64,000 nucleotides of DNA from IMG/VR virus record IMGVR_UViG_3300032132_000748, one strand, 5' to 3'. Shown piece by piece: positions 1 through 54,997 of the stretch (the first letter of the stretch is position 1; each line of letters opens with the position of its first letter). The notes under the pieces were generated by a model. The model ran no database searches. It was not told the origin of the DNA and saw only the letters and a program-made list of their open reading frames with translations. A program made the translations under genes and the position numbers. This DNA is from a virus. Taxonomy: Duplodnaviria > Caudoviricetes.

Positions 1-57
1 TAATAATTCTAAGTACACAGATAAGCCTAGGCATAGAGTTAATATTACGTAGTTATT

Positions 58-810
58 ATGGGAATCAGGAACATATTCAGCCGACTATTTAGAAGCAAGT
101 CAAATATAGATAATGCTCCGCTAACACCGGAGTTAATAGAATCATTGCCTACGGCAGATGATCCTGTTTTTCATAGAGACTCAAAAAGGCTTATGCAACG
201 TTTTGATGAATACATCACAGCAGCAGAAGCTGAAAGCGAAATATTGAGTATCGAATTAGATAATACTTTGAATCAAGAAGATATACTACGAACTCAATTG
301 CAACATCTCAACAAACCTGGCTCTTGGCATGAACGTCATATTTTTCTAAAAATAGATAGACTTCAATTACATAGCACAAACCTAAAACAACGTATTGAAA
401 TTTATTCTCAAAATATAAAGATATACTTAAATTTAATTGCGAAAATTCAAGATGTAAAAGCTATGCGACTTAACGGCCTAGACCAAGAAAAGATAGAAAC
501 TATTTGGTTAGAATTTAAGGATACTCTTGAAGAGTACAGAGATAGGATTCAACACGAACAGGCTGGCTATCACAATGAGCAAGTTACTTCACAGCATCAA
601 GAAGAAAGAATTGTAGAGCTTCGAAAAGAAATCTTTCCCGAAGAAATTGAAAAAAAATCGGATCAAAAACAAGTCGTCGAATTTGAGCCAGAGCCCGAAG
701 TAATAAGACCATCTATCTCAAGTCTCATCGAGACTGAAGCTCAAGACCAGGAATTTGATATTGAGGACGATGATTACTACGAGGATGAGCAGGAGCTAGT
801 TTTAGAATAA
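58..810 (+). CDS. Coiled-coil protein with N-terminal amphipathic helix and acidic tail (possible PspA/ESCRT-III-like)
   Basis: 250-aa ORF; MGIRNIFSRLF start, long heptad region, GLDQEKIETIW segment, D/E-rich C-terminus; family is inference. Confidence 0.55.
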   Translation: MGIRNIFSRLFRSKSNIDNAPLTPELIESLPTADDPVFHRDSKRLMQRFDEYITAAEAESEILSIELDNTLNQEDILRTQLQHLNKPGSWHERHIFLKIDRLQLHSTNLKQRIEIYSQNIKIYLNLIAKIQDVKAMRLNGLDQEKIETIWLEFKDTLEEYRDRIQHEQAGYHNEQVTSQHQEERIVELRKEIFPEEIEKKSDQKQVVEFEPEPEVIRPSISSLIETEAQDQEFDIEDDDYYEDEQELVLE

Positions 811-1837: not shown

Positions 1838-2287
1838 ATGGCACTTAAAGCAGTAAAAATAAGCACCAAAGCTCTTGGGCAATTAAACGATATAACTGCC
1901 GCCACTCCAGAAGCTCGTCAAAAGATTGGTGCTGCCCTTAATGGGGCTATAAACGATTTATGGATCAAAGTTTGCAAAGGAGAAGTTACCCTTCTTCTTT
2001 CAGATGATGAAGAATTTCTTGTGTCACCTAAATCCGAGTTTTCGCAAGACGCGAAGAATAAACTTGGTTGTTCAGGTCCTTACACAGTAGTCCAAACTTG
2101 TAAATCTTGGGTTGGGGTTTCTGAAGGTATCTACAAAATAAAAGATTGTGACGGCTTTGTTCCTGTTGCATGGTTCTCTAAAGTAGAGCCAAAAAAAGAA
2201 CAAAAGACTAACAATCTCTTAACTGTGGTTTTAGCGGTCGCCAGTTTGATTCAAAGTGGGGCGATCTTCGCTTTATTTTTACTCTAG
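1838..2287 (+). CDS. Hypothetical protein with C-terminal transmembrane helix
   Basis: AGGAG RBS; hydrophobic C-terminus. Confidence 0.7.
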   Translation: MALKAVKISTKALGQLNDITAATPEARQKIGAALNGAINDLWIKVCKGEVTLLLSDDEEFLVSPKSEFSQDAKNKLGCSGPYTVVQTCKSWVGVSEGIYKIKDCDGFVPVAWFSKVEPKKEQKTNNLLTVVLAVASLIQSGAIFALFLL

Positions 2288-2325
2288 AAATTGTTATTTT
2301 GCTATAATGATTTTGGAGTATTTAA

Positions 2326-2733
2326 ATGTATCAATTCGGTGAATTACCCTCAGACATAGATGATATGGATGACACCCTAGGACCGCCTCCAGCTTGGTTC
2401 AGGTCCGAGCAAAGCTATGTAAATCCCAGTTCTTATTATTACACTCCGGGCTATAACACTTTTTATGGTCTAGGAGATAGAGAACAGGAGCCTGAAGCAA
2501 ACCCAATTGAGGAATTGCAAGAACTTAAGTATAAGCAGGAATTAAACAGAAAAATTCCTTCTGTTGCTTACCGATACACCGCTATTGATCCTCTATCCCC
2601 GATGTTCCGCGACAGAAGAACAAAATACGGGTATGGTGGTCTGGGTGAAGATGGTAAAGCTAAAAAAGCCGTCCTACCTCTCCTAATCGCCGGTGTAGCA
2701 TTTTGGTTTTTATTTCTTAGAAAGACTGCATAA
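2326..2733 (+). CDS. Tail-anchored membrane protein with G-tag motifs (putative virion membrane protein)
   Basis: FGE, FYGLGD, YGGLGE; C-terminal TM followed by RK; TGCTATAAT and GGAG upstream. Confidence 0.7.
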   Translation: MYQFGELPSDIDDMDDTLGPPPAWFRSEQSYVNPSSYYYTPGYNTFYGLGDREQEPEANPIEELQELKYKQELNRKIPSVAYRYTAIDPLSPMFRDRRTKYGYGGLGEDGKAKKAVLPLLIAGVAFWFLFLRKTA

Positions 2734-2805
2734 CTTAGCCAACGTTGACCCTGATACATTCCTTGGTAACCTATACGTAGCCTCATAGGTTAAGGAGTGT
2801 TATTT

Positions 2806-3195
2806 ATGGCTACTAATGAAGTACCGTTTAATAGAGTTGTTGTTCCAAGCGAGGGTGGTAACCCTGGCGTTAAATTCGCTGAATTTCTCAATATTGATGA
2901 GGATAGCGAAATCACTTTTGCAGAAATGCAAAGCTACATCTACGACCGCCTGTTCCGCCTAGGAATGGTTCGTCATGTTGATGGCACTAGGGCTCGTCGC
3001 CCTCGCGCGAGAGACAGAGATGCTGCAAGGCGTCGTCGTAGTGGTGCCCGTGCTGTTACCGTAAAGGTAGGCAAAAAGGCTAAAGCTAAGACTAAAGCTA
3101 AGACTAAAGCTAAAGCTAAGACCAAAACCAAGACCAAAGGTGTCAAGGCTAAAGGTCGCAGCCGCAAAGCTAAAGCTAAAGCTAAAGCTAAATAA
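2806..3195 (+). CDS. Basic DNA-binding protein, SWIB-like N-domain plus H1-like K/A/T tail
   Basis: AAGGAG RBS 8 nt before ATG 2806; FAEFLNID..ITFAEMQSYIYD resembles SWIB; KAKAKTK repeats; followed by terminator. Confidence 0.7.
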   Translation: MATNEVPFNRVVVPSEGGNPGVKFAEFLNIDEDSEITFAEMQSYIYDRLFRLGMVRHVDGTRARRPRARDRDAARRRRSGARAVTVKVGKKAKAKTKAKTKAKAKTKTKTKGVKAKGRSRKAKAKAKAK

Positions 3196-3207
3196 CTCCT
3201 CTGTTAG

Positions 3208-3242
3208 AGAATAGCCCCTAGGTTTTCTTAGGGGCTATTTCT
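3208..3242 (+). terminator. Intrinsic terminator
   Basis: AATAGCCCCTA/TAGGGGCTATT hairpin after gene 2806. Confidence 0.75.
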
Positions 3243-3246
3243 CTGG

Positions 3247-4149
3247 GTGAAAATAATGAAAATAGAACTGATAAGTCAACGCTCGGGAATTTACGGCGGT
3301 CTTAAAAGACTTTACCGATTAGCTGCTTATTTCATCGAGGCTGGTCACGAAGCCGTTATCAATATCGATGATGGCTCTACCTGTGATTGGTTTGAACACT
3401 CCGTAACAGAGAATGTTGATATAGACCCTGATGTCAGAATCATGCCAGAAACCTGGCAAAAGCCTCACCCGACAGCTAAAAATATTCTCTACGTTCAAGC
3501 TCAGTTCGATCCTCCCGAAGATCGCTTCGATGGTATAGTCACTACTACTGATTTCCTGGCTGAAACTATTTCAGAAGAAGGCTTTGCGCCTGATTGGGTC
3601 ATCCCCTATGGTTTTGATTCTAATAAGTTCAAAGAGAGTGGGAGAGACAGAAGTAAAAACTGGCCTTGGAATCGAACTGCCTATATGCCCAGAAAAAATA
3701 AGCAGGAAGCGGACTTAGTCGAGATGCTCTATCCGGCAGACCCTACTTATGGTGCAATATTTGATCCAATAGAAGGGTGTAATGAGCAAGAAGTTATCGA
3801 GAAACTACAGAAAGCAGACATATTTCTAGCGCTATCCCGCGTCGAAGGCTTCGGAATGCCACCTTTTGAGGCTTCTTTGTGTGGCTGTTTAGTTATCGGA
3901 TATCACGGTAAAGGCGGAAGAGAATGGCTCAACTCCAACACATCCGTTATGTGTGGAAATCCTCAAGAAATTGTTGCAGCTATCGCTGACGCCGCGCAAG
4001 GTAAGCATGAACCTGAGAGACTTGCCTTGCAAGAGCTTATCAAGACGGATCTTACACTGGAAAAAGAAGCGGCTGCATGGTTAAATATTATTAATGATGT
4101 CAACGACGGAGCTAACCAAATCACAGATATTGAGGGGGAACTCGCTTAG
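3247..4149 (+). CDS. Glycosyltransferase, GT-B fold (GT4-like)
   Basis: ADIFLALSRVEGFGMPPFEASLCG (EGFG-x4-EA motif); N-terminal GG. Confidence 0.85.
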   Translation: MKIMKIELISQRSGIYGGLKRLYRLAAYFIEAGHEAVINIDDGSTCDWFEHSVTENVDIDPDVRIMPETWQKPHPTAKNILYVQAQFDPPEDRFDGIVTTTDFLAETISEEGFAPDWVIPYGFDSNKFKESGRDRSKNWPWNRTAYMPRKNKQEADLVEMLYPADPTYGAIFDPIEGCNEQEVIEKLQKADIFLALSRVEGFGMPPFEASLCGCLVIGYHGKGGREWLNSNTSVMCGNPQEIVAAIADAAQGKHEPERLALQELIKTDLTLEKEAAAWLNIINDVNDGANQITDIEGELA

Positions 4150-4801
4150 CTGGCTTCCGTTACTCCCAAAAAACCAATTTTCTCTTCTTTTAAGTGATCC
4201 TCCTTATGAAATTAGTAGAGATAATAATTTTGATTCTATGGGTCGTCGAGGAATGGATTTTGGTGAGTGGGATAAAAACTTTAATCAAACGGACTGGATC
4301 AAATTAGCGGAGCCCACTCTCAAGCCTTGGGCTAATGTAGTTATCTGGAATGACTGGAAAAAATTAGGGACTATTGCTACTTTTCTTGAAGAAGAACTAG
4401 GCTTTCAGATCAAAACAGTCTTGACGTGGATTAAATCCAACCCAAACCCTGCCAACTGTAAACGTAGATTCCTACAAGGAACAGAACACGCGATTTGGGC
4501 TGTTAAACCTGGTCCGAAAAAGAAAGGTGTATCCTGGACGTATAATGAGAGCTACCATCCTGGCTGGTTTAAGCACTCTGTCATAACTAACTCTAAACAT
4601 CCTACTAAAAAACCTGACGTAATTTTTGAAGAGATAATCAAGAAACTTACTAACCCCGGTGATTGGATCTTAGACCCTTTTGCTGGTGGGGGTACGACCG
4701 CATACGCTGCAGAAAAAACAGGTAGGCAGCACCTCTCAATTGAGCTTGACGAAGCTTATCATAAAATAGCAACGGATCATTGGGGGAAAGCTCTTGTTTA
4801 A
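4094..4801 (+). CDS. DNA N4/N6 methyltransferase, beta class
   Basis: DPPY catalytic motif first, then HPTKKP and ILDPFAGGGTT. Confidence 0.9.
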   Translation: MMSTTELTKSQILRGNSLSWLPLLPKNQFSLLLSDPPYEISRDNNFDSMGRRGMDFGEWDKNFNQTDWIKLAEPTLKPWANVVIWNDWKKLGTIATFLEEELGFQIKTVLTWIKSNPNPANCKRRFLQGTEHAIWAVKPGPKKKGVSWTYNESYHPGWFKHSVITNSKHPTKKPDVIFEEIIKKLTNPGDWILDPFAGGGTTAYAAEKTGRQHLSIELDEAYHKIATDHWGKALV

Positions 4802-5120
4802 TTTAGGTAATTTTTTAAAGGAAGCGTTTAATCCTGAAGATATCCTCTATCAAAATACGTCTAACTCATTTCTCCCGGAACTTGTGATCAGTCCTACCCT
4901 TAAAAAGGGTATAGATCAAATATCATTAGATTTTTTAACCAGTCTTTATTTTGCTTCTAAAAAATCACAATCGTTACGAGAACAGTCAGAAGTATGGTTT
5001 CTTGAAGAGATAAACCAGGGAATTCATGATGTCTATCCAAATAAATCTCGTAGAGAATACGTCGCTATATTACAACAAATTATAAAAATGTCAGATCCAG
5101 ATTATGGGACGGAGAAATAG
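4794..5120 (+). CDS. Hypothetical protein
   Basis: 108-aa ORF filling the gap between two operon genes. Confidence 0.55.
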   Translation: MFNLGNFLKEAFNPEDILYQNTSNSFLPELVISPTLKKGIDQISLDFLTSLYFASKKSQSLREQSEVWFLEEINQGIHDVYPNKSRREYVAILQQIIKMSDPDYGTEK

Positions 5121-5123
5121 ATT

Positions 5124-6095
5124 ATGGAAAGATTACTAATAACTGGTGGAGCGGGATTTATCGGTTCTAACTTTATTCACTATATGCAAAAGAAGCATAA
5201 GAAGCTTGTCATTATGAACTATGACAAACTTACCTATGCAGGTAACCTTAATAATTTAAAAGACATAGACGTAACACGATATACATTCTGTAAGGGAGAC
5301 ATAGTTCTTGAAGAGGATTTTAAGACTGCTGTTAAAGCGTTTAACCCTGATGCTATTGTTGCTTTCGCAGCAGAAAGTCACGTAGATAATTCAATTGATG
5401 ATCCTCAACTCTTTATCACTACAAACGTCTTAGGTTCTGAAAATATTTTAAGAGTTTCCAGAGATTTAGGAATTAAAAAAATAGTTCATATCTCTACTGA
5501 TGAGGTGTATGGCAGTTTAGACGCACCCATAGAAGCAAACGAAAATTTCACATTTAAACCAAATAGCCCCTATTCTGCATCCAAAACTTCTGGAGACCTT
5601 TTCTGTCGCGCCTATTATGTAACCTATGGAACTCCTGTGACTGTGATCCGTGGTAGTAATTGCTACGGGCCTCGCCAGCACCCGGAAAAACTAATTCCGA
5701 AGTCTATTACCAATCTCCTATCGGACAAGCCTGTATCGATTTACGGGGACGGTAAACAGATCAGGGAATGGATATATACCGAAGATTTCTGTAGCGGGGT
5801 AGAAACAGCTTTACTTAGAGGTAAGCCAGGAGAGGCTTATAACTTAGGTGGTGGCAAAGATAACAGAATTTTCAATTTAGACATTGCTTGTGAGTTACTC
5901 CAAAACCTTAATTTGGACAAAGAAAGTAATATTGAATATGTTGCAGACAGACCCGGCCATGACATGAGATACGCACTTAATAGTAATAAATTAAAGGCTT
6001 TAGGTTGGCAACCAAAGTATAGCCTTACTACCGGGCTCAAAAATACTGTTGAATGGTATAAGAAAAATGAGTGGTGGTGGAAACCTTTGATTTAA
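5124..6095 (+). CDS. rfbB: dTDP-glucose 4,6-dehydratase
   Basis: TGGAGFIGSNF, DKLTYAGN, AAESHVD, STDEVYG, YSASK, DRPGHDxRY. Confidence 0.95.
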   Translation: MERLLITGGAGFIGSNFIHYMQKKHKKLVIMNYDKLTYAGNLNNLKDIDVTRYTFCKGDIVLEEDFKTAVKAFNPDAIVAFAAESHVDNSIDDPQLFITTNVLGSENILRVSRDLGIKKIVHISTDEVYGSLDAPIEANENFTFKPNSPYSASKTSGDLFCRAYYVTYGTPVTVIRGSNCYGPRQHPEKLIPKSITNLLSDKPVSIYGDGKQIREWIYTEDFCSGVETALLRGKPGEAYNLGGGKDNRIFNLDIACELLQNLNLDKESNIEYVADRPGHDMRYALNSNKLKALGWQPKYSLTTGLKNTVEWYKKNEWWWKPLI

Positions 6096-6125
6096 CTTCG
6101 AATCATTTGCTATACTTAGACTATC

Positions 6126-6599
6126 ATGGGATACACTAGATTAGGACAATTAGTTCAGACTCAACAGCAGACTTATAGACAAGCCTACCGTTTCCCTCCC
6201 GTATACATGCCCTATGGACATCCCGCCGCTTATGCTGCAGCACAGCAGCGACAACAGGCTAATGTTGATCCAGAGGAAGTACAGAAGGCTATCTATAAAG
6301 ATCTCACAAAAGAGATTAAAAAAGAGCCTTCGGCTGCGGGGACGGAACCTCAGAAAATTCTAAAGCTCAGCTCGGGCCTCGAAGTTCCGCAGTATATAGT
6401 TCAAAGAGACGTTGCTAGAAAGAAGAATGATAAGTTAGCCGCCGAAGCTGCAGCTAAAGGCCCGCCTCCTGAAATTCCACCTATTTTTTACACAATAGGT
6501 GTGTTTGCATCAGAACAACCAGCGATGGCTTCGATCATAGCCGTGGGTTTGGGTGCTGTTGCGGGCAACGTTTATTTTAACTCCCGAAAAGACCATTAA
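6126..6599 (+). CDS. Tail-anchored membrane protein
   Basis: N-terminal RLGQ, Q/Y/A-rich region, C-terminal hydrophobic helix. Confidence 0.7.
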   Translation: MGYTRLGQLVQTQQQTYRQAYRFPPVYMPYGHPAAYAAAQQRQQANVDPEEVQKAIYKDLTKEIKKEPSAAGTEPQKILKLSSGLEVPQYIVQRDVARKKNDKLAAEAAAKGPPPEIPPIFYTIGVFASEQPAMASIIAVGLGAVAGNVYFNSRKDH

Positions 6600-6648
6600 T
6601 ATTTCAACATTAGTACACACTTTTGTATAATAGACTAGAGGTGTATAA

Positions 6649-8208
6649 ATGTATAGTTCTCCATTCGGATCTATTTTCGGGCAAGACGATTCTGCCCCTA
6701 AAGCTGCCCCACCCAAGGCTGTAACTAAACCTGCTCCAAAAAAGCAGTCCGCTAAAATTATGCGCGAAATGCAAGAGCGTATGGAAAGTGTGGAAAAAGA
6801 AGAGGTTTATAAACCGGGCCAAACGAAGGGCAAGGATTCTGATAAGAAAAAACTCTTTGACAACACTCTTCCCCAATTTAGAGCAGAAGTTGAGGTGGAG
6901 AGTAAAAACCCTGAAGTTCGTAACGAGCAAGCCAAGTTCGCATTAGAAAAAATGCAAACAAAGTATGCGGCTGTTAAAAGAAAACTAGCAGAACTCAAGA
7001 GAAAACATGCCTCTGCACGCCTATATAATGATATGTTGGTGCAATACACCCAATTAGACCCCCAACACAAGCAAGATATAACCGGCTGGCTTAATCAAAA
7101 TATTGATGCGGTTAAGCAACTCGCTTCAGCTAGAAAACTTAAAAAGCTGACCAAAGACACAAAAGAAGCGGCTAGGGCCACTGATTTAGAGATTAAGCAT
7201 CTTGAAAAATTATCTGAGATAAAAGATACCGGAGTTAATGTTACCGGGGGAAGAACCCTTAAGAGCTTTAGAACTAAGGGTATGAAAAAAATACAAGATT
7301 CGTCAATCTCAGCCGATACCGGCCCCCTACCTAAGCTTGGAGGAAAAGTTTCTCTCAAGGATATAGTTCGCCTAGGAAACCGAGGGGTTTCTGAAATTCA
7401 AGGCTATGGAGAGGACGTTGATGAATTCGCCAGCCAAACAGAACGACCTTCAAAAAAGATCCCTAAAAAGGAAAAAGATGTCGTTCTTACCAGAAAGCTA
7501 GCTAAGCAACTTCACAAAAAGGACAGTTTCAAAGAACTCTTTGCTAAGGGGTTGAAGGGCAAGCGATATTACATGAATCAGCGTAAGTCTCGCGGGAAGG
7601 TTGAAAGACTTGAACATGGAACAGAACTGGCTCTGCTAGATCGCATGCAAATTAAATGGAAGCTTGAAAAACTTGAGACAAGAGTTAATAAAGAGCTAAG
7701 TGCTTACAAGGATACTCAAAAATCCATAAAGGGTTTAATATCTAAAGTCAAGAATAGCGGTGTTGAAGGTGGTAAGGTTACGACAGTGATTGGGATCCTA
7801 TCTGAAGCACGCCCAGAAAAATTTGTAGCCTCCGCTACACTACTCGACGCCCTCAAGAACTCTTTCAAACAACTATCACAGCTCGGATATTTTGGTCAGG
7901 AAGCTAAAACTCCTTCACAGGAAGCTAAAACTCTTCTTGCTACCTCAGCTAAAGAGTCAGAAGACGCAATAAGAGAGCTTGAAAGCCGCCAAAATGCAGC
8001 AGCTAAGCTTAAAGCAAAAGTAGAAGATAAACCTGCCCCAGCACCTGTTAGAACGCCAACTCCTGTTATTATTATTCAAATTAAGCAAGAACTTGAACAA
8101 CAAGAACAGGCGCAGCAAAAGAAAGAAGATACAATTAAAAAAGCAGGCACCATATTTCCTCTACTAATCGGTGGACTTATCCTGTATAAGATACTGGTAG
8201 GTAACTAA
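6649..8208 (+). CDS. Large K-rich coiled-coil protein with C-terminal TM and G-tags
   Basis: 519 aa; FGSIFGQ, IQGYGE, LGYFGQ; TM IFPLLIGGLILYKIL. Confidence 0.75.
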   Translation: MYSSPFGSIFGQDDSAPKAAPPKAVTKPAPKKQSAKIMREMQERMESVEKEEVYKPGQTKGKDSDKKKLFDNTLPQFRAEVEVESKNPEVRNEQAKFALEKMQTKYAAVKRKLAELKRKHASARLYNDMLVQYTQLDPQHKQDITGWLNQNIDAVKQLASARKLKKLTKDTKEAARATDLEIKHLEKLSEIKDTGVNVTGGRTLKSFRTKGMKKIQDSSISADTGPLPKLGGKVSLKDIVRLGNRGVSEIQGYGEDVDEFASQTERPSKKIPKKEKDVVLTRKLAKQLHKKDSFKELFAKGLKGKRYYMNQRKSRGKVERLEHGTELALLDRMQIKWKLEKLETRVNKELSAYKDTQKSIKGLISKVKNSGVEGGKVTTVIGILSEARPEKFVASATLLDALKNSFKQLSQLGYFGQEAKTPSQEAKTLLATSAKESEDAIRELESRQNAAAKLKAKVEDKPAPAPVRTPTPVIIIQIKQELEQQEQAQQKKEDTIKKAGTIFPLLIGGLILYKILVGN

Positions 8209-8639
8209 TGGCAACATATGAATACGCAAGCGCCCAGACAAGCCGCCTTGGAGAATTTCAAATAGCTCAAGGAGAGCGAGCATTTGGAGAATTCGGGCAA
8301 AGTGACGTTGTCGCGGGAATTAATGCAGTCGGTAATGCAGTTAATGGCATTGTAGGCTCCATAACTAGGGCTAGTGTACTCAAAACGCAGTCCAAAGACA
8401 GACGAAAAATTGCTCTCCATGTTGCAACAGAAAACACTAAAAAACTTGATATTCAAACTAGAGGTGCGGTGGAGCAAAAAGCCATCGAAGTAGAGCAAAC
8501 TAAGGCTACCCTAGGATCAATCTCTAAGCTTGTTCTAGTGGGAGGAAGCGTATTCATAGGAGTGATAATTGCCGGGGCCGTGGCCTATAAAGTAGCGGCA
8601 GGAGACTCAGGAGAATACGACCTAGAATACGCATACTAG
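8208..8639 (+). CDS. Membrane protein, paralog 1 of triplet
   Basis: LGEF..FGEFGQ, short coil, TM, acidic Tyr tail. Confidence 0.75.
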   Translation: MATYEYASAQTSRLGEFQIAQGERAFGEFGQSDVVAGINAVGNAVNGIVGSITRASVLKTQSKDRRKIALHVATENTKKLDIQTRGAVEQKAIEVEQTKATLGSISKLVLVGGSVFIGVIIAGAVAYKVAAGDSGEYDLEYAY

Positions 8640-8648
8640 GAGGTACGG

Positions 8649-9014
8649 ATGTATGTTACAGAATCCAGCCAACTAGGTGAATTTGGTGAATTTGGAATAA
8701 TCATCCAAGGCATCGTAGCTGCCGTACAAGGAGTTACTCTAGGGGCTGCAGCGGCAGTCGAGCATCAGGGAGTCAAAAAGTATCTCAAAAAGGAAGGGCG
8801 AACTTTTCAAATAGAGAGAGACGAAGCCCTCAAAGTAACAAAGCAACATCTGGCCAATAAAGAACGTCTTTTACGCGTCCAAGGACAGATAGAACTCACA
8901 AAAGATGCAAATGTTAAGAAATTAGTTATACTAGGTAGTGTGACTTTAACTGTAGTAACTCTTGTTGGATTAGGTGCTTATTACATGGTGTCCGTGGGAG
9001 ATGACGATGAGTAA
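8649..9014 (+). CDS. Membrane protein, paralog 2 of triplet
   Basis: AGGAGG RBS; LGEFGEFG, coil, TM, GDDDE tail. Confidence 0.75.
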   Translation: MYVTESSQLGEFGEFGIIIQGIVAAVQGVTLGAAAAVEHQGVKKYLKKEGRTFQIERDEALKVTKQHLANKERLLRVQGQIELTKDANVKKLVILGSVTLTVVTLVGLGAYYMVSVGDDDE

Positions 9015-9354
9015 CTTTGGCCAAATAATGGCTATCTTTGACACAGTCAACAGAGCAGGTGCCTTAACCTCCCATACTATAATTCAGAACAAAAAACTTA
9101 AAGGTGAACAAAAACTTGCTAGCCAACGAATTTCTAGCCAAGAACGCCTATCCAAGCTCGGAATTGATTTTCAAGGGAAAGAGCTAGAAGCCAAACTAAT
9201 TATCTCTCAACGAAGAGATAAGTTATTTAAAGATATTGCCCTTTATGCTGGTATAGGTATTGGAACAATTGCTATGATAATAACAGTAGGGGTGCTTTTT
9301 GTTGGAGCAAAGAGAGAAGATCAATACGAATATATGGAGGAAATAGTAGTTTAA
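9007..9354 (+). CDS. Membrane protein, paralog 3 of triplet
   Basis: Probable start ATG 9007 after GGAG; NFGQ, coil, TM, acidic tail. Confidence 0.7.
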   Translation: MSNFGQIMAIFDTVNRAGALTSHTIIQNKKLKGEQKLASQRISSQERLSKLGIDFQGKELEAKLIISQRRDKLFKDIALYAGIGIGTIAMIITVGVLFVGAKREDQYEYMEEIVV

Positions 9355-9597
9355 ATGGCCTATTATGAAACATTTGGAGGGTTTGGAAAAGGTTTCGCAC
9401 CGCCGCCCCCACCACCACCAGAGGACCCTACCGCGCCTACCATCACTCCTGAAGAGGAGGCTGCAATATTGCAAGCTACTCTTCCCATCCCAGAGCCAGA
9501 ACCTAGTTTTCTGCGGCGTAATGCTGTTCCACTTTTTGTCGGGGGCGGGATTCTAGTCCTAGGTACCGTAGGCATGCTCTTAATGATCAGAGTATAA
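9355..9597 (+). CDS. Pro-rich tail-anchored membrane protein
   Basis: GGAGG RBS; FGGFG, poly-Pro, C-terminal TM. Confidence 0.7.
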   Translation: MAYYETFGGFGKGFAPPPPPPPEDPTAPTITPEEEAAILQATLPIPEPEPSFLRRNAVPLFVGGGILVLGTVGMLLMIRV

Positions 9598-9637
9598 AAA
9601 CCTTGTACCTAGTTTCTATTTTTGGTAAAATACTGTT

Positions 9638-10639
9638 ATGGCGTGGAAAGAGCAACTTTTATTTTACAAACAAAGCCCCTATCAGCGTATAGCTTTCTTC
9701 ACGGAGAGTGATGGATCTCTGTCACTAACTCTTGATGATTATTGGCAGTTTAATAGCAAATGTGAGCACATCTATCATGAATGCCTCTTCACAATGCCAG
9801 GACTTTTCCCTAAGAACCTCAAAAACGTTCTGATTCTTGGTGGTGGTGATGGTTTGGGTGTGCGAGAGCTGCTTAAATACAAAACAGTCGAACATATTGA
9901 TATGGTAGATCTTGACCCTGAGATGATCAAATTTGCTAAGACAAATATCTTCATGAAGAATCTAAATAAAGATAGCATGAATAACCCTAAATTAAAGGTA
10001 GAGGTTACTGACGCTAAAAAATGGTTGGCTAAGCCAGTAACTAGAAAATATGATCTAGTTATTGTAGATTTCCCGGATCCAACGTCGGACCTCTTATGGA
10101 CTCTATATACTAAAGAACTTTACGGACAAATAGCCAGCAGGCTATCTAAAACCGGTATAGTTGCTATTCAGTCATCTACATATAACACAAAGACATTTGA
10201 ATTAATTTATGACAAATTAGATAAGGTATTTCCGTTCATTTTGGGTTACCACACAGGAGCCTCATCTGTATTTTGTGGATTTTTCCTAACTTCCTTTACT
10301 CCGATCAAAATGCAGCGTCCTATTCCGGTAAGCTGTCGCTGGTTGAAACCAGAATTGATCAATATGATACTTGGGCTACCCGTTGCTAACTCTAAAACTA
10401 AAAAGAAAAAATCCAGGCAGATACTTGACCCCGACAAGCTGGTCCTCAGAGCAAAACCCCAACTCAAAGGTCCAGCTAGTTTAGGTGAGCTAGGTCAGCC
10501 AGACCCTAATTTTTTCCCAGATAAAAATCCCATTAACGTACCACAGGAAGGTCCTTCCTTGTTTGCCAGCCCTGTCGTTAAGGGAGGGCTTGCAGTAGCG
10601 TTCATTATTCCGTTACTCTTGAAGGTGATGGGTAAGTAA
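9638..10639 (+). CDS. speE: Spermidine synthase (aminopropyltransferase) with added G-tag and C-terminal TM
   Basis: SPYQRI, EHIYHE, LILGGGDG, VDLD, DFPDP; extra tail LGELGQ plus hydrophobic helix. Confidence 0.9.
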   Translation: MAWKEQLLFYKQSPYQRIAFFTESDGSLSLTLDDYWQFNSKCEHIYHECLFTMPGLFPKNLKNVLILGGGDGLGVRELLKYKTVEHIDMVDLDPEMIKFAKTNIFMKNLNKDSMNNPKLKVEVTDAKKWLAKPVTRKYDLVIVDFPDPTSDLLWTLYTKELYGQIASRLSKTGIVAIQSSTYNTKTFELIYDKLDKVFPFILGYHTGASSVFCGFFLTSFTPIKMQRPIPVSCRWLKPELINMILGLPVANSKTKKKKSRQILDPDKLVLRAKPQLKGPASLGELGQPDPNFFPDKNPINVPQEGPSLFASPVVKGGLAVAFIIPLLLKVMGK

Positions 10640-11010
10640 TGGAACAACAAGATATACATAATACTGAAGCAACCCACTACGTCGTAGATTTTTATCAAAT
10701 AAAAAACGGGTCCTTACTTGATGATATGGATTTTTGTCTTACTGCAGTAAAAGACGCGGTCAACGCGGCTGGTTGTGGTATTTTGAATGAATTTTCCCAT
10801 AAATTTCATCCCCAAGGAGTCAGCATCAATCTAACTCTATCTGAAAGTCACTGCGCTATTCATACTTGGCCGGAGAGGGGTTACTGCGCCATAGATTTGT
10901 ATGGGTGTGGTGACGTGGATCTTCAAGCAGGAATTGATCTTTTTGCGGAAAGGTTTCAACCGGGTAAATCTGTAGTTCAAAAAATTAAAAGAGGTCACGA
11001 GCATGATTAA
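10639..11010 (+). CDS. speD: S-adenosylmethionine decarboxylase proenzyme (class 1B)
   Basis: HKFHPQGVS, LSESHCAIHTWPE autocleavage motif; coupled to speE. Confidence 0.92.
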   Translation: MEQQDIHNTEATHYVVDFYQIKNGSLLDDMDFCLTAVKDAVNAAGCGILNEFSHKFHPQGVSINLTLSESHCAIHTWPERGYCAIDLYGCGDVDLQAGIDLFAERFQPGKSVVQKIKRGHEHD

Positions 11011-11410
11011 ATTCGATGATGCAAAGTCTGACGACGAAAAAAAGATCGAACGCTCCTCTGAAATACTCTCTCGTACTATCCCAGAACAAACTGAAGATGC
11101 AATGAGTGACTACACTGCCGTGTTAGCTATCCTTAGAAAAGGGAAAGATTGGAGATTTGAGCCTCTGGTAAAGATGCTTGAAGACGTTTACATCTATCCT
11201 CGCAGAAGTGCCCATAACGAACTTGTAAGTGAGCTAAATGATCTCAAAGAGACACTATTAGAAGAAAGAATACAGAGAGTTCTTTCAAGCAAAGAAGCTA
11301 GTAAGCATTCTCAAAAATTCTTAGGGGATAATAAGCCTGCTAGTAAGATTACTCTTTGGAGAGTCTTGGTTGTTGGGGCGCTGGCCTACCTATTGTTTGG
11401 GCGAAAATAG
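11003..11410 (+). CDS. Tail-anchored membrane protein
   Basis: FLGD before C-terminal TM plus RK. Confidence 0.65.
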   Translation: MIKFDDAKSDDEKKIERSSEILSRTIPEQTEDAMSDYTAVLAILRKGKDWRFEPLVKMLEDVYIYPRRSAHNELVSELNDLKETLLEERIQRVLSSKEASKHSQKFLGDNKPASKITLWRVLVVGALAYLLFGRK

Positions 11411-11961
11411 TGAAAATACCGCGTAGTCCTCAAATCTTGCGCCCCCTACCTTATGCTTATGACGCCATAGAACCTGTTCTCAGTGCCGAAGCTATGCTTA
11501 TACATCACGTAAATCATCAAGGCGGTTATGTTAAAAAATTTAATAAGCTACTAAAGAATGGAGGATCAGAAGAAGATTTAGAATTTAATTACTCTGCCCA
11601 CATCCTACACACCTTATATTTTAACAACCTTGCCTCACCCCACTCTACCCACCCCGGACCAAAATTCCTTGCCAGCTTCCCCTCTGCTGAGAACTGTCTT
11701 CTTGAGATGCTTCAAGAAGCTTCAAACATTAAAGGCTCAGGCTGGGCTTTACTTGTGGAAGACAATAAGGGTCTTTCTATCAAATCAATCCCTAACCATG
11801 AACTTGGTCGAGTTGTAAATAAGTGTAAACCTATACTGGTATTAGACTTATGGGAACATGCCTGGTATCTAGATTATCAATCTGATAAAGCAGATTTTTT
11901 AGAATCTATTAAGAGTTGTATTAACTGGGATAAAGTAGAATCTCGTTTAGCACAAGTTTAA
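11410..11961 (+). CDS. sod: Fe/Mn superoxide dismutase
   Basis: LPYAYDAIEP, HHVNHQGGYV, HILH, GSGW, DLWEHAWYLDY; probable GTG start 11410. Confidence 0.9.
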   Translation: MKIPRSPQILRPLPYAYDAIEPVLSAEAMLIHHVNHQGGYVKKFNKLLKNGGSEEDLEFNYSAHILHTLYFNNLASPHSTHPGPKFLASFPSAENCLLEMLQEASNIKGSGWALLVEDNKGLSIKSIPNHELGRVVNKCKPILVLDLWEHAWYLDYQSDKADFLESIKSCINWDKVESRLAQV

Positions 11962-11978
11962 ATTTAGTATAATACAGC

Positions 11979-12401
11979 ATGAGTAGATTCGGCGTAGTTC
12001 CAGACCCATACAGTGTATTTAATCCACCGGATTACTGGACACAAATGATTGACGACCCCACCCAGGTTCCGGTCCAAATTAACCCGTATGGTGGAGGATA
12101 TGGGCCTCAAGGTCCTTATCCCGGTTTTTATTACGGTCAACGCACGTTCACTCCTGAAGATATGCGTAGAGAAGCTCGCCGTAGAGCCGACTATATGGAT
12201 AGGCGCGCTGACGTATCAGAAGACCCTTCGCATAGATACCTTAACCCTGAAGGAAGACTAAAAGGCCCTGCTGGGTCAGTTCTTCGAGCTTTGAGAGCTA
12301 AAAAGAAGGCTCCTGCACAACAGGACATAGTAAAACAAATCCAAAAGAAAGTCATAACAACGGTTCTAATTGGAGCGGTGCTATCCGCACTATTAAAGTA
12401 A
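11979..12401 (+). CDS. Tail-anchored membrane protein, P/Y/G-rich
   Basis: TATAAT 5 nt before ATG; YYGQ; C-terminal hydrophobic helix. Confidence 0.7.
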   Translation: MSRFGVVPDPYSVFNPPDYWTQMIDDPTQVPVQINPYGGGYGPQGPYPGFYYGQRTFTPEDMRREARRRADYMDRRADVSEDPSHRYLNPEGRLKGPAGSVLRALRAKKKAPAQQDIVKQIQKKVITTVLIGAVLSALLK

Positions 12402-12402
12402 A

Positions 12403-12714
12403 ATGAAAATTGCGGCGGGGCGGAAAGAAGATCCGTCAGACTTCTCAGTTACCTACTCTATACAAGAAATACTAAGAAGAGCTACAAAAAAACTCAAGAT
12501 ACATGATAGAGGCATCCCCCTTACTTCGGATGTTTTTGGTAGGTTTCCTACTTTGGTAGGGCGGCTACGTCGATTTGGTAAGTGGAATAGGGACGGAGTT
12601 TCTCACGTAAAAGTGTTCTATGATCCCAACTACTATCATAGAAACGCCCATACTGTTCATCTGATGGATCCTATTCACATCTATGCGGTGTTAAAGTATG
12701 CAGGTATTAAGTAG
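12403..12714 (+). CDS. Hypothetical protein
   Basis: 103-aa ORF directly after upstream stop. Confidence 0.55.
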   Translation: MKIAAGRKEDPSDFSVTYSIQEILRRATKKLKIHDRGIPLTSDVFGRFPTLVGRLRRFGKWNRDGVSHVKVFYDPNYYHRNAHTVHLMDPIHIYAVLKYAGIK

Positions 12715-13255
12715 TTATTTTATTAACTATCCACTGCTCATCAGGCTTCTTCATCAGTTTTCCTTTAGATATAGTTTGTATGGAAGGTTGCCAAAGATCT
12801 ACTTGTTTTGACACAAAAATTGTATCAGCAGGCATACCATAGTCATATAATCTTTGTGCCATGTGTCGTAATCTGAGATTCAAATAATTTATGTTTGTGG
12901 TTTCAAGAAAATCAAAAACAACAACTGGTGCGTGGTGTTGTATAGTTTCTTCTGTGTGTTCAATTCCCGACATCTCCTGCTCAATGTCTGAATAGGTTAG
13001 TCGAGGTGAGCTATCTTTTGGATATACAATTCCATATTCTCTTTTGTCATCCATATCAAATATTTTATCTATGTGATGAGGATAGACCGAAAATTGTCCT
13101 ACATATAGATTATATTGACCATCGAAAGCGAAGATATGCCTAAATTTTGCATTTTCCCATTGGTTATGGGGGTTAATGTAAAATCCGATGCTACGGAGAA
13201 TCTCTCCTGGGGAATAATACCAGTTGAAAAGTTGACGTAGCTTATCTTTGTCCAC
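12707..13255 (-). CDS. Hypothetical protein
   Basis: 182-aa ORF, last gene of minus-strand block. Confidence 0.65.
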   Translation of the reverse strand: MDKDKLRQLFNWYYSPGEILRSIGFYINPHNQWENAKFRHIFAFDGQYNLYVGQFSVYPHHIDKIFDMDDKREYGIVYPKDSSPRLTYSDIEQEMSGIEHTEETIQHHAPVVVFDFLETTNINYLNLRLRHMAQRLYDYGMPADTIFVSKQVDLWQPSIQTISKGKLMKKPDEQWIVNKITT

Positions 13256-13264
13256 GTCTATAAT

Positions 13265-14888: not shown

Positions 14889-14940
14889 GCATTGATTATA
14901 TCAATTGGTTAAGTAATTAACAAATAATTAGGTTAAGCTA

Positions 14941-15579: not shown

Positions 15580-15625
15580 AGTCCCTCATTAACAGTATAT
15601 CAAATTAGAGTAAATATTAGGCTAA

Positions 15626-17061: not shown

Positions 17062-17073
17062 CTTTCTATTATA

Positions 17074-37059: not shown

Positions 37060-37151
37060 CTAAAGATCCTCTTTTCCCATTATACAAAATAACGGACCTC
37101 TTATACTATTTTTATACTTGTATTGATGGCTTTTTAAGGCACTCTAGTAAG

Positions 37152-38600: not shown

Positions 38601-38602
38601 AA

Positions 38603-39325: not shown

Positions 39326-39361
39326 ATCGCTATTTTAACATTCCAAACGACGGAAATCAAA

Positions 39362-44941: not shown

Positions 44942-45895
44942 TTATTCAAAGTCGGCGGCAGCGGCGGTGTCCCACAATGATCCGTCAAGACCTTCGTAGC
45001 CACCATAGTGCCCTGCACTGTGTTTCATTGTATCGGCAACTTGCTGATCACGGGGGTTAGCAGTCTCTGGGACGAATCCTGCAAGACCTGATTCCGCTTC
45101 GAAAGAACCGAGACGTTGTGAGTTGTAGATATCGCCTAGGGGCTCGTATCCACTTAGGAATGGGTTGTCCTCTGGATCAACTAAATCAGTTGCGGCAACA
45201 ACTGGTTGACCGAAGTAACCTTCCATGCCTGGAGCTACACCAGTGGTGAACTCGTCATAATATGCTTGTCCGTAAGGTGAGTAACCTTCAAACTCTTTTG
45301 ACCAGCTTCCCCATCCTGCGAGACCTTTAGCCTCAAGGAATCCTTCGACTGGTGCTTGTGCGATCTTCCAGAAACCGAGTGTCATAGCACCGATTGCTCC
45401 AGGGATTGCTGCTTGACGTAGGAAGTCACCAACGGTTCCTGCACCTAACATCTCAGAGATCTTTAGTGCAGCAACGCCGCCACCGATACCACTAGCAACA
45501 GCTAGAATACCTTGACCGACACTACCTTCGCCTACTCTTTCACCAAGTAGTTTACTGCCTATCGCTAGGACGGCACCGCCGCCAACTGCTGCGACACCAG
45601 CATACATAATGTTTTTTCCACCTTCACCTGCAACGCTCTTAACAAGGTCACCCATTGCTGGGTTACGACGACGACGTGACAATGGGTTACGACGTTTCTT
45701 GCTGCGGCTGCGGCTCCGGCTCTTTTTGCTTCGGCTTTTTTTTGCCTTGCGCTTTTTACTTGCCATTTTAGCCCTCTTTTTCATTTTCGGACCGTCTTCA
45801 TCATCTAGTGAATACGGGTTTACGATTAAAAGTTCTGGGTTTCGCCTTCTTTTCTTTTTGTTTGGGAGATTAGACGGATTTACCATATAAAACAT
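44942..45895 (-). CDS. RRNP-rich multi-TM protein with G-tagged acidic tail (putative major virion membrane/core protein)
   Basis: RRNP x3, three Gly/Ala-rich hydrophobic helices, LAGWG, MEGYFGQ, LSGYEPLGD; probable ATG 45895. Confidence 0.75.
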   Translation of the reverse strand: MFYMVNPSNLPNKKKRRRNPELLIVNPYSLDDEDGPKMKKRAKMASKKRKAKKSRSKKSRSRSRSKKRRNPLSRRRRNPAMGDLVKSVAGEGGKNIMYAGVAAVGGGAVLAIGSKLLGERVGEGSVGQGILAVASGIGGGVAALKISEMLGAGTVGDFLRQAAIPGAIGAMTLGFWKIAQAPVEGFLEAKGLAGWGSWSKEFEGYSPYGQAYYDEFTTGVAPGMEGYFGQPVVAATDLVDPEDNPFLSGYEPLGDIYNSQRLGSFEAESGLAGFVPETANPRDQQVADTMKHSAGHYGGYEGLDGSLWDTAAAADFE

Positions 45896-45911
45896 TGTTG
45901 TTTTCTCCAAT

Positions 45912-46026: not shown

Positions 46027-46080
46027 ATCATAGTATAAGACGTAGTATCGTGTCAACACTTTTTTTGAGTTTTTTTTACA
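46027..46080 (-). promoter_or_regulatory. Sigma70-type promoter with A-tract UP element for capsid operon
   Basis: Minus strand TTGACA-18 nt-TATGAT with upstream A-runs. Confidence 0.6.
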
Positions 46081-48376: not shown

Positions 48377-48592
48377 TTATCTATTAAGTAATTTGTAAGC
48401 TACTACTAGTATAAATAAAGTACCTAAAAGCCCAAATGATTTTTTAGTTTCAGTGACTCTTTTGGCCTCTTCAGAGCCAAGCTGCCACCCATCTAGAGCT
48501 GCGTGTCTAGCATGAATTCGTTGTTCCGGTTTAGCCTTCAAGCCCATACCCAGAGATAAATTATCTAAGTTTCCAAACATATTACCTCGCAT
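48377..48592 (-). CDS. Small tail-anchored protein
   Basis: MFGN, LDGWQLG, C-terminal TM. Confidence 0.6.
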   Translation of the reverse strand: MRGNMFGNLDNLSLGMGLKAKPEQRIHARHAALDGWQLGSEEAKRVTETKKSFGLLGTLFILVVAYKLLNR

Positions 48593-48938
48593 GTTTTAGC
48601 CTCTTCAGCTTTTTAGCCATCATGGCTATTTTTTTCTTTTGTTGATCTTGTTTATATAGCAATAAAGCAACACCTAATAATAGCAAAAGTATCACACCTA
48701 TAGTCAACATTTTCTTATTCTGGAGTAAACCAGAAAATTGCCCCAACCCTGCTAAGGTGTTAGGGCTTTTAAAAACATTTATAATGGGTGTTGGTGCTTG
48801 TTGCGGCACTACAGGACCCGTTCTTTGTTTTGAAACTTTATTTCCCAAGGCTTTCATTTCTTTGAGAGCCTTGATCATTTCAGGATGTTTACTTGGATCT
48901 TCTCCCCCAAACATGGGTTGAAATGGGAAATTTTTCAT
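48582..48938 (-). CDS. Tail-anchored membrane protein
   Basis: LAGLGQFSG then TM and basic tail. Confidence 0.7.
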   Translation of the reverse strand: MKNFPFQPMFGGEDPSKHPEMIKALKEMKALGNKVSKQRTGPVVPQQAPTPIINVFKSPNTLAGLGQFSGLLQNKKMLTIGVILLLLLGVALLLYKQDQQKKKIAMMAKKLKRLKHAR

Positions 48939-49986: not shown

Positions 49987-50712
49987 TTACTCCTTAGTTT
50001 TCCTTGATTTTATCAAATAATATATTGCGGTTGCTATTATTATACCGAAAATTAAATTTGAATGTGAGTGGCTGGAATCTTCAAAAGTTCCATCCAAGTT
50101 AAATATTTTTTTTGTTGCATACTTAGGCGCTTCCCAGCCCATTTTAGCTCCCGGAACAGAGCCATCCAAACCAATCCACTTATTGTTGATTTTAGTTTGG
50201 ATATAAATATGTGAATAATCTTCCTTGTCTTTATAGTTATTTCCAATAATGACAATTCTTACCGGGTGTCCGATGGACTGTAATAATGCTCCTGTTAGGA
50301 TGACAAAATCATCGCAGTCTGCAGCTTTATTATGTCTGCGCAATAGTTCTCTAGCGCGGTGTACTGTTTCAACTCTGTGAATATCCTTAGTATAGCGCAG
50401 TCTTCTTACGACAAAATTATAAACAGCCTTTACTTCTTTTTTATAATCCTTTTCTGGAATATATTGCGTTATTTTTTCTGCGAGAGTTCGGATAACCATA
50501 TCCTTTTTACCCTCATCAATAAGCTTTTTAATTACCTCAACAGACTCATAGGTAGCGCGGCTACTCTCAGAGAGTTTGACGTGATAAGTTTTCATATCTT
50601 CTTTGGGCAAAAACTTATCAAGCCATGATGCTATACGCGCATATTCAGCATCGTAATCATCCACGTCTGGATTGATATCGCCAATGAATCTAGGTAACTT
50701 ATTTTGAGACAT
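49987..50712 (-). CDS. Transglutaminase-like cysteine enzyme (putative maturation protease), C-terminal TM
   Basis: ADCDD (Cys), SHIY (His), WIGLD (Asp) papain-like triad order; RYTKD. Confidence 0.85.
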   Translation of the reverse strand: MSQNKLPRFIGDINPDVDDYDAEYARIASWLDKFLPKEDMKTYHVKLSESSRATYESVEVIKKLIDEGKKDMVIRTLAEKITQYIPEKDYKKEVKAVYNFVVRRLRYTKDIHRVETVHRARELLRRHNKAADCDDFVILTGALLQSIGHPVRIVIIGNNYKDKEDYSHIYIQTKINNKWIGLDGSVPGAKMGWEAPKYATKKIFNLDGTFEDSSHSHSNLIFGIIIATAIYYLIKSRKTKE

Positions 50713-53912: not shown

Positions 53913-54997
53913 TAACTTATCTCCTTACTATCTGGATCTTGCAAAAATTCTTCCGGTATAGGTATGTCATCTGGTAGTTGCCAGGTTGGTTTTGCTGCAG
54001 GTATCTCAGGGTCATTTCCCGCGTGCGGCCTTGATGTTGGATGTAGTCCAGGCATTTCTTCTTTTATCTCTGGTAAAGGAGGGCTTGGGTGCAAACCCGG
54101 CATTTCTGGGACTAATTTTGAAGCAGCTAGTATTTCCGCCAGAGGATCATCATCAGGCTTAACTTCAATTACTGGTTCGGGCTTAACTTCAATTACTGGT
54201 TCGGGCTTAACTTCAATTACTGGTGTTGGCTCGGGCTTAACTTCAATTACTGGTTCTGATCTCCAATCTCTAGTCATAGGATTTGAAACTAAAGGTTCAG
54301 GTCTAACTATTTCTGCCATCTCTTTATCTAGCGGCTTTGAAATAATTGGTAGTTCTGAAATTGGTATAGAAGGGGGATTAAGTAAATCAGAGAAATCTTT
54401 TGGAGTAGTAATAGGAGGAGCCGCTACAGATGGTTTTGTTACTGCCTCTTTAACTTCTTTAGGGGCAACTTCTGCGGGGTTAACAATAGGTCCAATTTTT
54501 TCTACAATCGGTAGTGTAAGATTATTTTCACTATTTTTATTTACGTCCTTAACAGGAGGAGTTGGAGGAACAGTTGTTTTTTGTTCAACAACCGGGGTTG
54601 TTGCGACAGCCCCCACAGCAGCACCTACCAAAGCAGGCTTCTTTGCAACAGTTACGCCTTGGCTTGCTGCTACAGATGCTGGGGTAGCTGACTCTACTTT
54701 TCTAGGGGGAGGTCCTGCGGTTGGCAGCTTTTTACGGAGCTTATCGAAAGTGGAAAGCATTCCCCCGCTAACAGCACCAACTAGTTTTTCTCGTCTCTGA
54801 TGTTGTCTTACGGGAATACCCCCACCTTCTGCAAGCATTCCAAAGGAGTCAACTGCAGACTTTAATCCGCATTGTTCATATGATTCATCCCACAAGGCAC
54901 ACGCCTCCTCAACACAATGATGCGCTCCCCCTGCTTGGGAGTTTTCCTTGTTTACGTAGAAGGAGAAGAAACTTAATGGGCAAAATTTTCGGGCCAT
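53912..54997 (-). CDS. Cys-cluster N-domain plus Pro-rich repeat protein
   Basis: CPL..HC...CALWD...QC; PVIEVKP x4; EMPGLHP x2. Confidence 0.75.
   Translation of the reverse strand: MARKFCPLSFFSFYVNKENSQAGGAHHCVEEACALWDESYEQCGLKSAVDSFGMLAEGGGIPVRQHQRREKLVGAVSGGMLSTFDKLRKKLPTAGPPPRKVESATPASVAASQGVTVAKKPALVGAAVGAVATTPVVEQKTTVPPTPPVKDVNKNSENNLTLPIVEKIGPIVNPAEVAPKEVKEAVTKPSVAAPPITTPKDFSDLLNPPSIPISELPIISKPLDKEMAEIVRPEPLVSNPMTRDWRSEPVIEVKPEPTPVIEVKPEPVIEVKPEPVIEVKPDDDPLAEILAASKLVPEMPGLHPSPPLPEIKEEMPGLHPTSRPHAGNDPEIPAAKPTWQLPDDIPIPEEFLQDPDSKEIS
54156..54256. repeat. 24-bp coding tandem repeat, four copies
   Basis: GGCTTAACTTCAATTACTGGT at 54156, 54180, 54204, 54234. Confidence 0.9.

Follow-up and report, generated by a model that had tools for sequence, protein, structure and literature searches.

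The window described here, a stretch of 64,000 nucleotides from the viral record IMGVR_UViG_3300032132_000748, is probably the particle-building region of an uncultured marine bacterial virus with a genome of ~0.86 Mb. The virus would be of the tailless, single-jelly-roll type with an internal membrane, and its closest studied relative would be the phage SSIP-1. On balance, this is the reading that we favour. Its tailless part is conditional, holding only if the contig outside the scanned stretches carries no tail genes. The window (64 kb, with a guanine-plus-cytosine (GC) content of 40%) contains 93 densely packed open reading frames (ORFs), named below by their first coordinate, and no tRNA genes. 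It forms part of a metagenomic contig of 858,992–859,269 bp, and maps in reverse orientation to ~181–245 kb of ENA record ERZ27248692 k141_839137. A first-pass annotation of the window had anticipated a genome of more than 64 kb, and the length of the contig bears this out. Coordinates of the features discussed are collected in Table 1.

The shell would be built from the products of two tandem genes, 44249 and 43577, which encode proteins of 189 and 185 residues with 85% identity to one another; a tandem jelly-roll pair is also present in three relatives (L003 to L005). Both proteins had been picked out at first pass as capsid candidates, and structure prediction confirms them as single jelly rolls. 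The AlphaFold2 model of the 189-residue protein, made from an alignment of 100 relatives, is an eight-stranded jelly roll (predicted local distance difference test (pLDDT) 91.2; predicted template modelling score 0.87). Its best structural matches are capsid proteins of the membrane-containing prokaryotic viruses SPV1, HHIV-2 and HCIV-1. The top match in BFVD is an unnamed viral protein of 211 residues, I1ZBH9, the same length as SSIP-1 gp46. These match scores are only ~1 above those of unrelated jelly rolls such as PHM, so that the fold of the 189-residue protein is established while its descent is not. The profile of the family finds no match among PDB chain sequences.

Self-association of the jelly-roll proteins is supported by modelling of three copies, which gave a score of 0.68 against 0.01 for the best control. 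Of 30 proteins solved as pairs, 20 attained this mark, as did one of 23 solved as single chains; these counts are only a rough calibration because a custom alignment and three copies were used. At least 50% of the contacts agreed in the three-copy runs, and the partner pLDDT was 73 or higher. The family itself is large, an exhaustive search having gathered 601 representative clusters of relatives, mostly of 170–220 residues. A third, diverged member in the window, 34442, has an orthologous position in a 531-kb relative, where it lies beside Hsp70 and sugar-modifying genes. Six further members of 300–360 residues (P0035, P0037, P0039, P0043, P0067 and P0107) carry a conserved N-terminal domain of ~130–190 residues, with the motif VWRGG...PP...IEIEQP, fused before the jelly roll.

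SSIP-1 is a cultured, tailless, membrane-containing phage of Salisaeta; the literature places it among the membrane viruses of the ‘vertical single beta-barrel’ type, which have two capsid proteins (PMC4958249, PMC5332951, PMC6356626). The jelly-roll family profile recognises two of its adjacent structural proteins, gp46 (E 6e-4) and gp45 (E 1e-3), the next protein having an E value of 0.53. In an hhalign comparison gp46 is colinear with the family over 156 columns with conserved motifs in register (E 0.002), at a probability of only 13%. Used as a phmmer query among ~270 proteins, gp46 matches members of the jelly-roll family only. Like the window pair, gp45 and gp46 are paralogous. This evidence is weak but consistent, and suggests that the window pair are distant homologues of gp45 and gp46. 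The second link is clear: the transglutaminase-like protein 49987, which the first-pass annotation had also recognised, is by sequence a homologue of the SSIP-1 structural protein gp34 (phmmer E 4.7e-12). The same protein has 34% identity to a gene of a small relative (L006:1736-2683). The original proposal of a giant member of a single-jelly-roll lineage therefore stands in part: the contig is of 859 kb and the jelly-roll module appears homologous to that of SSIP-1, which takes the place of P23-77 and SH1 as the closest relative.

A second type of jelly roll is found in the 202-residue product of 20348. In its model a disordered Gly/Gln-rich N-terminus is followed by a helix (residues 43–75) and a jelly roll (residues 80–192) in which every ten-residue block averages a pLDDT of 88–96. 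The protein has no detectable sequence relation to the 189-residue family. It has 45–98% identity to its aligned homologues (54 matches in the homologue search) and is better conserved than its surroundings; both tandem jelly-roll genes, in turn, are preceded by strong Shine-Dalgarno (SD) sequences. Such conservation and such expression signals are as expected of major structural proteins. From the model, the jelly roll of the 202-residue protein is a candidate penton-like domain. A proposed homology between its family and SSIP-1 gp1 was not accepted (hhalign probability 3.8%). Both 20348 and its neighbour 19602 had been put forward as capsid-type proteins at first pass, and this was upheld for the former alone: the Atlas model of the 246-residue product of 19602 is poor (pLDDT 0.51), giving weak leads to VP17-barrel and C1q/BclA-like folds, and the protein shows no similarity to the jelly-roll profile.

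A paralogue of the 202-residue protein, of 259 residues, is encoded far from the window at contig positions 656–677 kb (locus L009). Around it are four very large proteins (721–1324 residues) in which helix-turn-helix matches are numerous but faint. Genes close by encode a DEAD-box helicase, a peptide deformylase and an AcrVA2-like/SEC-C protein.

The jelly-roll genes belong to a block which is conserved among giant contigs. Its 933-residue protein, 51111, has 28 relatives, which come without exception from metagenomes; the contigs that carry them reach 938, 599, 531 and 204 kb, and some are from Tara Oceans samples. The gene order from the 933-residue protein to the two jelly-roll genes is conserved on the 531-, 599- and 938-kb contigs, which come from other samples. 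The 531-kb contig is ENA ERZ27287755 k119_494514, the 938-kb contig lies in MDTD01 and the 599-kb contig is a JGI one. Large size thus recurs in independent samples, making a single misassembly unlikely. The 933-residue protein has no Pfam or PHROG match, and may be a scaffold or core protein. Homology of its N-terminal domain with a 380-residue protein of the small relatives was considered and is not supported; the two are positional analogues only. The product of 48944 is a candidate scaffold or membrane protein, its only PHROG match being a weak one to a head scaffolding family (E 0.016). The product of 44942, encoded directly upstream of the jelly-roll genes, is a candidate link between DNA or membrane and shell. 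Proteins of like make-up stand at the same position in two small relatives, L006 and L007; they are again positional analogues only, with no significant similarity by BLAST.

Megablast of 12.9 kb of the window and tblastn of the 189- and 202-residue proteins gave no match in 50,697 GenBank phage records, so neither of the two jelly-roll proteins has a relative in that set. Scans of IMG/VR with the 933-residue protein, with its alignment and with the 202-residue alignment found no relative. Nor did the 933-residue alignment find one in the representative genomes of 185,579 GTDB species. The 202-residue alignment recovered from the GTDB species genomes one 12-kb contig only, in a metagenome-assembled genome (MAG) labelled Anaerolineaceae; this MAG has no gene of the jelly-roll family, and the contig is therefore probably mis-binned.

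Members of the jelly-roll family are also encoded by three much smaller virus-like contigs of 22.4–23.4 kb and ~68% GC, one of which lies in the MAG GCA_041643095.1. Their genes follow the order of a ~385-residue protein, a transglutaminase-like protein, small membrane proteins, a protein of 740–900 residues, an Arg-rich/hydrophobic protein, the jelly-roll protein and several small proteins. Many of the encoded proteins are C-terminally anchored, and the contigs also encode an integrase, a lytic transglycosylase and methylases. In L007 the 202-residue profile weakly matches a gene that follows closely after the capsid-type gene and, in the 23.4-kb contig, an ORF region overlapping the corresponding gene (E 2e-4 and 9e-4 for the pair). 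None of the three contigs has a Pfam match to tailed-phage parts, or a Walker A motif in any frame. One of them, JBGGHE010000429.1 (23,410 bp; loci L006 and L008), ends on both sides in the same 31-bp tandem repeat with an identical overlap of 51 bp, and may therefore be a complete circle.

The internal membrane is suggested by tail-anchored proteins, of which the first-pass annotation had counted about 20. That figure is a fair one. A strict test, which requires one hydrophobic 19-mer within the last 50 residues, finds 16 in the window, and at least one further case, such as 48944-49984, falls just under the threshold. Basic proteins of core type were likewise found as described, three window proteins having an isoelectric point (pI) above 11: 21144 and 13911 (Table 1) and the product of 2797-3195 (pI 11.3). 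Nineteen window proteins contain the motif [FLY][GS]x[FLY]G, at 20 sites in all, compared to 4.9 ± 2.3 (maximum 12) in 300 shuffles, an enrichment of ~4-fold. Its carriers include 8208, 8649, 9355, 13591, 19602, 20348, 25238, 35188, 48944, 50788 and 51111, and thus the 933-, 202- and 246-residue, collagen and peroxidase proteins. Its presence in both membrane-anchored and soluble virion candidates suggests a possible role as a common signal for docking or sorting.

Genes typical of tailed phages were sought by family scans, which covered ~80 of the 93 ORFs with Pfam and 10 structural candidates with PHROGs. In agreement with the first-pass annotation, no terminase, portal, HK97 capsid, tape-measure, tail or baseplate family was found among them. 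No tailed-phage family was found either in the 20 kb around 666 kb of the contig (L009), where a helicase is present, and the precomputed Pfam annotation of four loci (L001, L003, L009 and L014) contains no tailed-phage genes. A packaging ATPase had not been visible at first reading, and none is visible now, since the sole real P-loop in the window is that of the APS kinase. No FtsK/HerA-type (A32-like) ATPase was found in the window or in L009, and neither the window nor the loci read yielded a homologue of gp40, the ATPase of SSIP-1 (PF13481); a database search with gp40, of low reach, gave three relatives only, none of them on a giant contig.

These results bear on the most serious alternative, that of a huge tailed phage (Caudoviricetes) whose tailed-phage genes lie elsewhere on the contig. 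The jelly-roll, transglutaminase and membrane set would then be an accessory system, such as a decoration or fibre layer, a membrane compartment formed in the course of infection or a module acquired from a virus like SSIP-1. Every described phage of more than 200 kb is tailed, and the largest phage genome cited, of 841 kb, comes from a preprint that defines huge phages as tailed (bioRxiv 10.1101/2025.02.27.640493). As ~500 kb or more of the contig lies outside the stretches examined, this explanation keeps about a quarter of the probability. It is opposed by the lack of tailed-phage families both in the window and at 656–677 kb, and by the ~23-kb elements, in which the jelly-roll family is accompanied by the second jelly roll and the transglutaminase-like gene but by no tailed-phage genes. 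In SSIP-1 the same genes encode virion proteins, and the conservation of the 202-residue protein and the strong expression signals of the jelly-roll genes fit major structural proteins rather than an accessory set.

Several points weigh against a tailless membrane virus. The scans reached the window and 20 kb of an 859-kb contig, and tailed-phage genes may lie elsewhere; the window itself holds no packaging ATPase. The membrane is inferred solely from the anchored proteins. Subunits of 185 residues around a genome of 0.86 Mb need a very large lattice, which is unprecedented among single-jelly-roll viruses. Finally, the sequence link to gp45 and gp46 amounts to ~11 bits at the hhalign probability given above.

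The contig might also belong to no virus at all, being instead a plasmid-like element of giant size or a strongly reduced cell; the window would then be an SSIP-1-like provirus, integrated or domesticated, that cargo genes have expanded. The sizes in question (0.53–0.94 Mb) are those of small cellular genomes, and the small relatives encode integrases. We nevertheless consider this improbable. Most of the ORFs have no known family, unlike those of a reduced cell, and the species genomes searched yielded no relative of the 933-residue protein and the 202-residue protein only on the probably mis-binned contig. Moreover, genes of virion type extend over more than 50 kb and occur again at 666 kb, rather than in one compact prophage.

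The expression signals of the window are bacterial. An SD-like motif precedes 38 of the 93 genes, compared to a background of 9% at random positions. In many of the remaining genes a TAnnnT -10 box lies 6–7 nt ahead of the start codon, and these genes are thus leaderless. At such starts (for example 25238, 33905, 39362 on the minus strand, 40165 and 40767) the box is TATAAT-like, often with TTG or TG before it. The mixture of leaderless genes with classical SD genes suggests two expression classes. A near-consensus sigma-70-type promoter stands ahead of the operon that includes the jelly-roll pair (Table 1).

From gene content alone, a giant virus of eukaryotes (Nucleocytoviricota-like) was the initial reading, Hsp70, collagen, animal-type peroxidase, glycosyltransferases and polyamine enzymes being typical cargo of such viruses. 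It was dropped on account of the gene-start signals and is now scarcely credible. The SD motif four times above background, the sigma-70 promoters and the -10 boxes at leaderless starts, together with an Hsp70 whose closest relatives are bacterial DnaK and mitochondrial mortalin, rule it out. The window has no double jelly-roll capsid or other hallmark family, and its structural module also occurs in a bacterial phage and in bacterial elements with a GC content of 68%.

If the window does encode a tailless membrane virus, its assembly might proceed as follows. The 185- and 189-residue proteins would tile an icosahedral shell over a lipid vesicle containing the ~16–20 tail-anchored proteins, while the 202-residue jelly-roll protein would form the vertices with its neighbours. 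Condensation of the DNA may fall to the very basic proteins rich in RRNP (21144, 13911 and the N-terminal part of 44942), helped by polyamines that the encoded SAM decarboxylase and spermidine synthases would produce. The transglutaminase-like enzyme would cut or cross-link virion proteins, and DnaK may assist assembly. The collagen-repeat protein would be hydroxylated, glycosylated or sulfated, and the haem peroxidase would cross-link it to form a fibre layer on the outside. Entry of the DNA could depend on an ATPase encoded elsewhere in the genome, or else on condensation and enclosure without a known motor. The latter has reportedly been proposed for SPV1.

The DnaK and the many auxiliary genes listed at first pass are real, as judged by Pfam. 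Peroxidase, collagen, oxygenase, glycosyltransferase and APS kinase genes are clustered in one region, and in the 531-kb relative (L014) a sulfotransferase and an epimerase adjoin the jelly-roll paralogue; together these suggest a cross-linked, glycosylated and perhaps sulfated fibre. The polyamine genes may supply polyamines to neutralise a very large genome. Further Pfam families in the window are a sugar epimerase/dehydratase, a patatin, an Fe/Mn superoxide dismutase and a DNA methylase. A small protein at 30137-30628 carries the RNA-binding domain NFACT-R (E 1e-13), which is familiar from the quality control of ribosomes. Past 55 kb (55323-64000) the direction of the genes flips and the membrane proteins end. 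This different functional block encodes RlaP, a nucleotidyltransferase linked to RNA repair, together with an endonuclease V-like protein and numerous small acidic proteins.

Table 1. Features of the 64-kb window, in order of position
Feature	Position	Strand	Basis and remarks
Cluster of tail-anchored membrane proteins	1838..18827		13 of the 16 strict cases; many with [FLY][GS]x[FLY]G
Spermidine synthase ending in a membrane anchor	9638-10639		Within the tail-anchored cluster
SAM decarboxylase	10639-11010		Directly after the anchored spermidine synthase
Arg-rich protein with RRNP motifs	13911..14888	-	pI 11.7; candidate core protein or polyprotein; no family match
Two beta-rich neighbours of the 202-residue protein, 246 and 133 residues	19188..20342	-	No Pfam or PHROG match
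202-residue protein, candidate vertex (penton-like) protein	20348..20956	-	Gly/Gln N-terminus, coiled-coil helix, C-terminal jelly roll
Very basic Lys/Arg-rich protein	21144..21731	-	pI 12.0; candidate DNA-condensing core protein; no family match
Fibre and modification region	25238..40123		Pfam
Animal-type haem peroxidase	25238-27406		Pfam
Glycosyltransferases	27628-30164		Pfam
DnaK	30698-32608		PF00012, E 4e-244; bacterial/mitochondrial type
APS kinase fused to a membrane domain	32669-33412		Pfam
Third, diverged jelly-roll family member, 249 residues	34442..35191	+	N-terminal Gly/Ser-rich extension; hmmsearch E 7e-21
Collagen-repeat protein	35188-37059		Pfam
DUF502 protein	37011-37769		Pfam
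Second spermidine-synthase-like protein	37770-38687		Pfam; N-terminal hydrophobic helix
2OG-oxygenase-like protein	38603-39325		Pfam
Tandem paralogue of the 189-residue jelly-roll protein, 185 residues	43577..44134	-	Family profile E 7e-80
Single jelly-roll, capsid-type protein, 189 residues	44249..44818	-	Member of a large unnamed family
Protein with Arg/Lys-rich N-terminus (RRNP motifs) and Gly/Ala-rich hydrophobic middle	44942..45910	-	Directly upstream of the jelly-roll genes
Sigma-70-type promoter, TTGACA-18-TATGAT	46027..46056	-	Near consensus (11/12 matches); ahead of operon 44942/44249/43577
Two small tail-anchored proteins	48377..48938	-	Within the morphogenesis block; equivalents in relatives
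Acidic protein, 346 residues	48944..49984	-	Poly-Asp run, LG/FG motifs, C-terminal anchor; position conserved in relatives
Transglutaminase-like protein (cysteine protease or cross-linker fold)	49987..50712	-	PF01841, E 7e-11
Lineage-conserved protein, 933 residues	51111..53912	-	Conserved N- and C-terminal domains, Arg/Glu-rich helical middle, Pro-rich stretch
Pro/Val-rich repeat protein, 361 residues	53912..54997	-	First gene of the conserved block; no family match

Taken together with the giant and small relatives, the window may represent a whole lineage of marine bacterial viruses with genomes of 0.5–0.94 Mb and tailless, membrane-lined, single-jelly-roll particles. We put this forward tentatively, at a little under even confidence. 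The lineage would have grown from viruses of ~23 kb resembling SSIP-1 and would have acquired a cross-linked, sugar-modified, collagen-like coat and, maybe, a motor-free loading of DNA by basic proteins and polyamines. A parallel for the lineage proposed here is the growth that has been suggested for the giant viruses of eukaryotes, out of small jelly-roll viruses. The literature searched gave no account of a tailless jelly-roll virus of bacteria with a genome this large, and to our knowledge the described tailless membrane phages and their archaeal counterparts have genomes of less than ~50 kb. If the proposal is correct, the virus is ~20 times larger than any described virus of this build, and genome gigantism arose in the jelly-roll architecture in bacteria as well as in viruses of eukaryotes. 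The ~23-kb relatives would then provide a series in which the growth of such a genome can be studied. Absence from phage catalogues would also be explained, since detection based on terminase and HK97 genes would miss such contigs. Two questions of assembly follow, namely how a very large shell is tiled from subunits of 185 residues and how DNA enters it when no motor is visible. Genes for collagen, peroxidase, hydroxylase, sulfation and polyamines, for their part, point to a virion chemistry which can be tested.

Among known systems, the giant viruses of the mimivirus type have fibre layers, an inner membrane and a jelly-roll shell, as well as collagen-like proteins, hydroxylase, glycosyltransferases, Hsp70 and translation-related genes. 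The genome described here resembles them in scale, in its collagen/fibre chemistry and in Hsp70, by analogy only. It differs in its bacterial expression signals and its single, rather than double, jelly roll, and no shared hallmark genes were found. The Helvetiavirae (Sphaerolipoviridae, Simuloviridae and Matsushitaviridae, including HHIV-2, HCIV-1, SH1, P23-77 and IN93) also have capsid proteins that are small single jelly rolls with adjacent genes. They share an internal membrane and the lack of a tail, both of which are inferred for the window virus from its genes alone. Their genomes, in contrast, are of 16–31 kb, and they pair one small capsid protein with one larger, two-storey capsid protein, adjoined by an FtsK/HerA-type ATPase. 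Their capsid proteins show no sequence similarity to the window family when its profile is compared with PDB chains. Their two capsid proteins form pseudo-hexamers in which the barrels stand upright, an orientation which cannot be read from sequence for the window proteins.

Sulfolobus polyhedral virus 1 (SPV1; Portogloboviridae) provides the best structural match of the 189-residue protein by both methods. Its jelly-roll shell reportedly covers a lipid-wrapped DNA core bound by a basic protein, and it is said to have no recognisable packaging ATPase. The likeness lies in the basic proteins and in the lack of a visible ATPase, in the window as in the ~23-kb relatives. SPV1 is, however, an archaeal virus with a linear genome of 20 kb and no sequence similarity to the window.

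SSIP-1 comes closest. The genome described here is ~20 times larger than that of SSIP-1, and its capsid-type pair is 85% identical, whereas the SSIP-1 pair is strongly diverged. The 933-residue protein has no similarity to SSIP-1 gp43, and that phage has nothing corresponding to the collagen, peroxidase, DnaK, polyamine and sugar genes. What the two have in common is a paralogous structural pair, of ~210 residues in SSIP-1 (gp45 and gp46) and recognised by the window family profile, a transglutaminase-like structural protein (gp34 in SSIP-1), and a structural block in which one very large protein is accompanied by several small membrane proteins.

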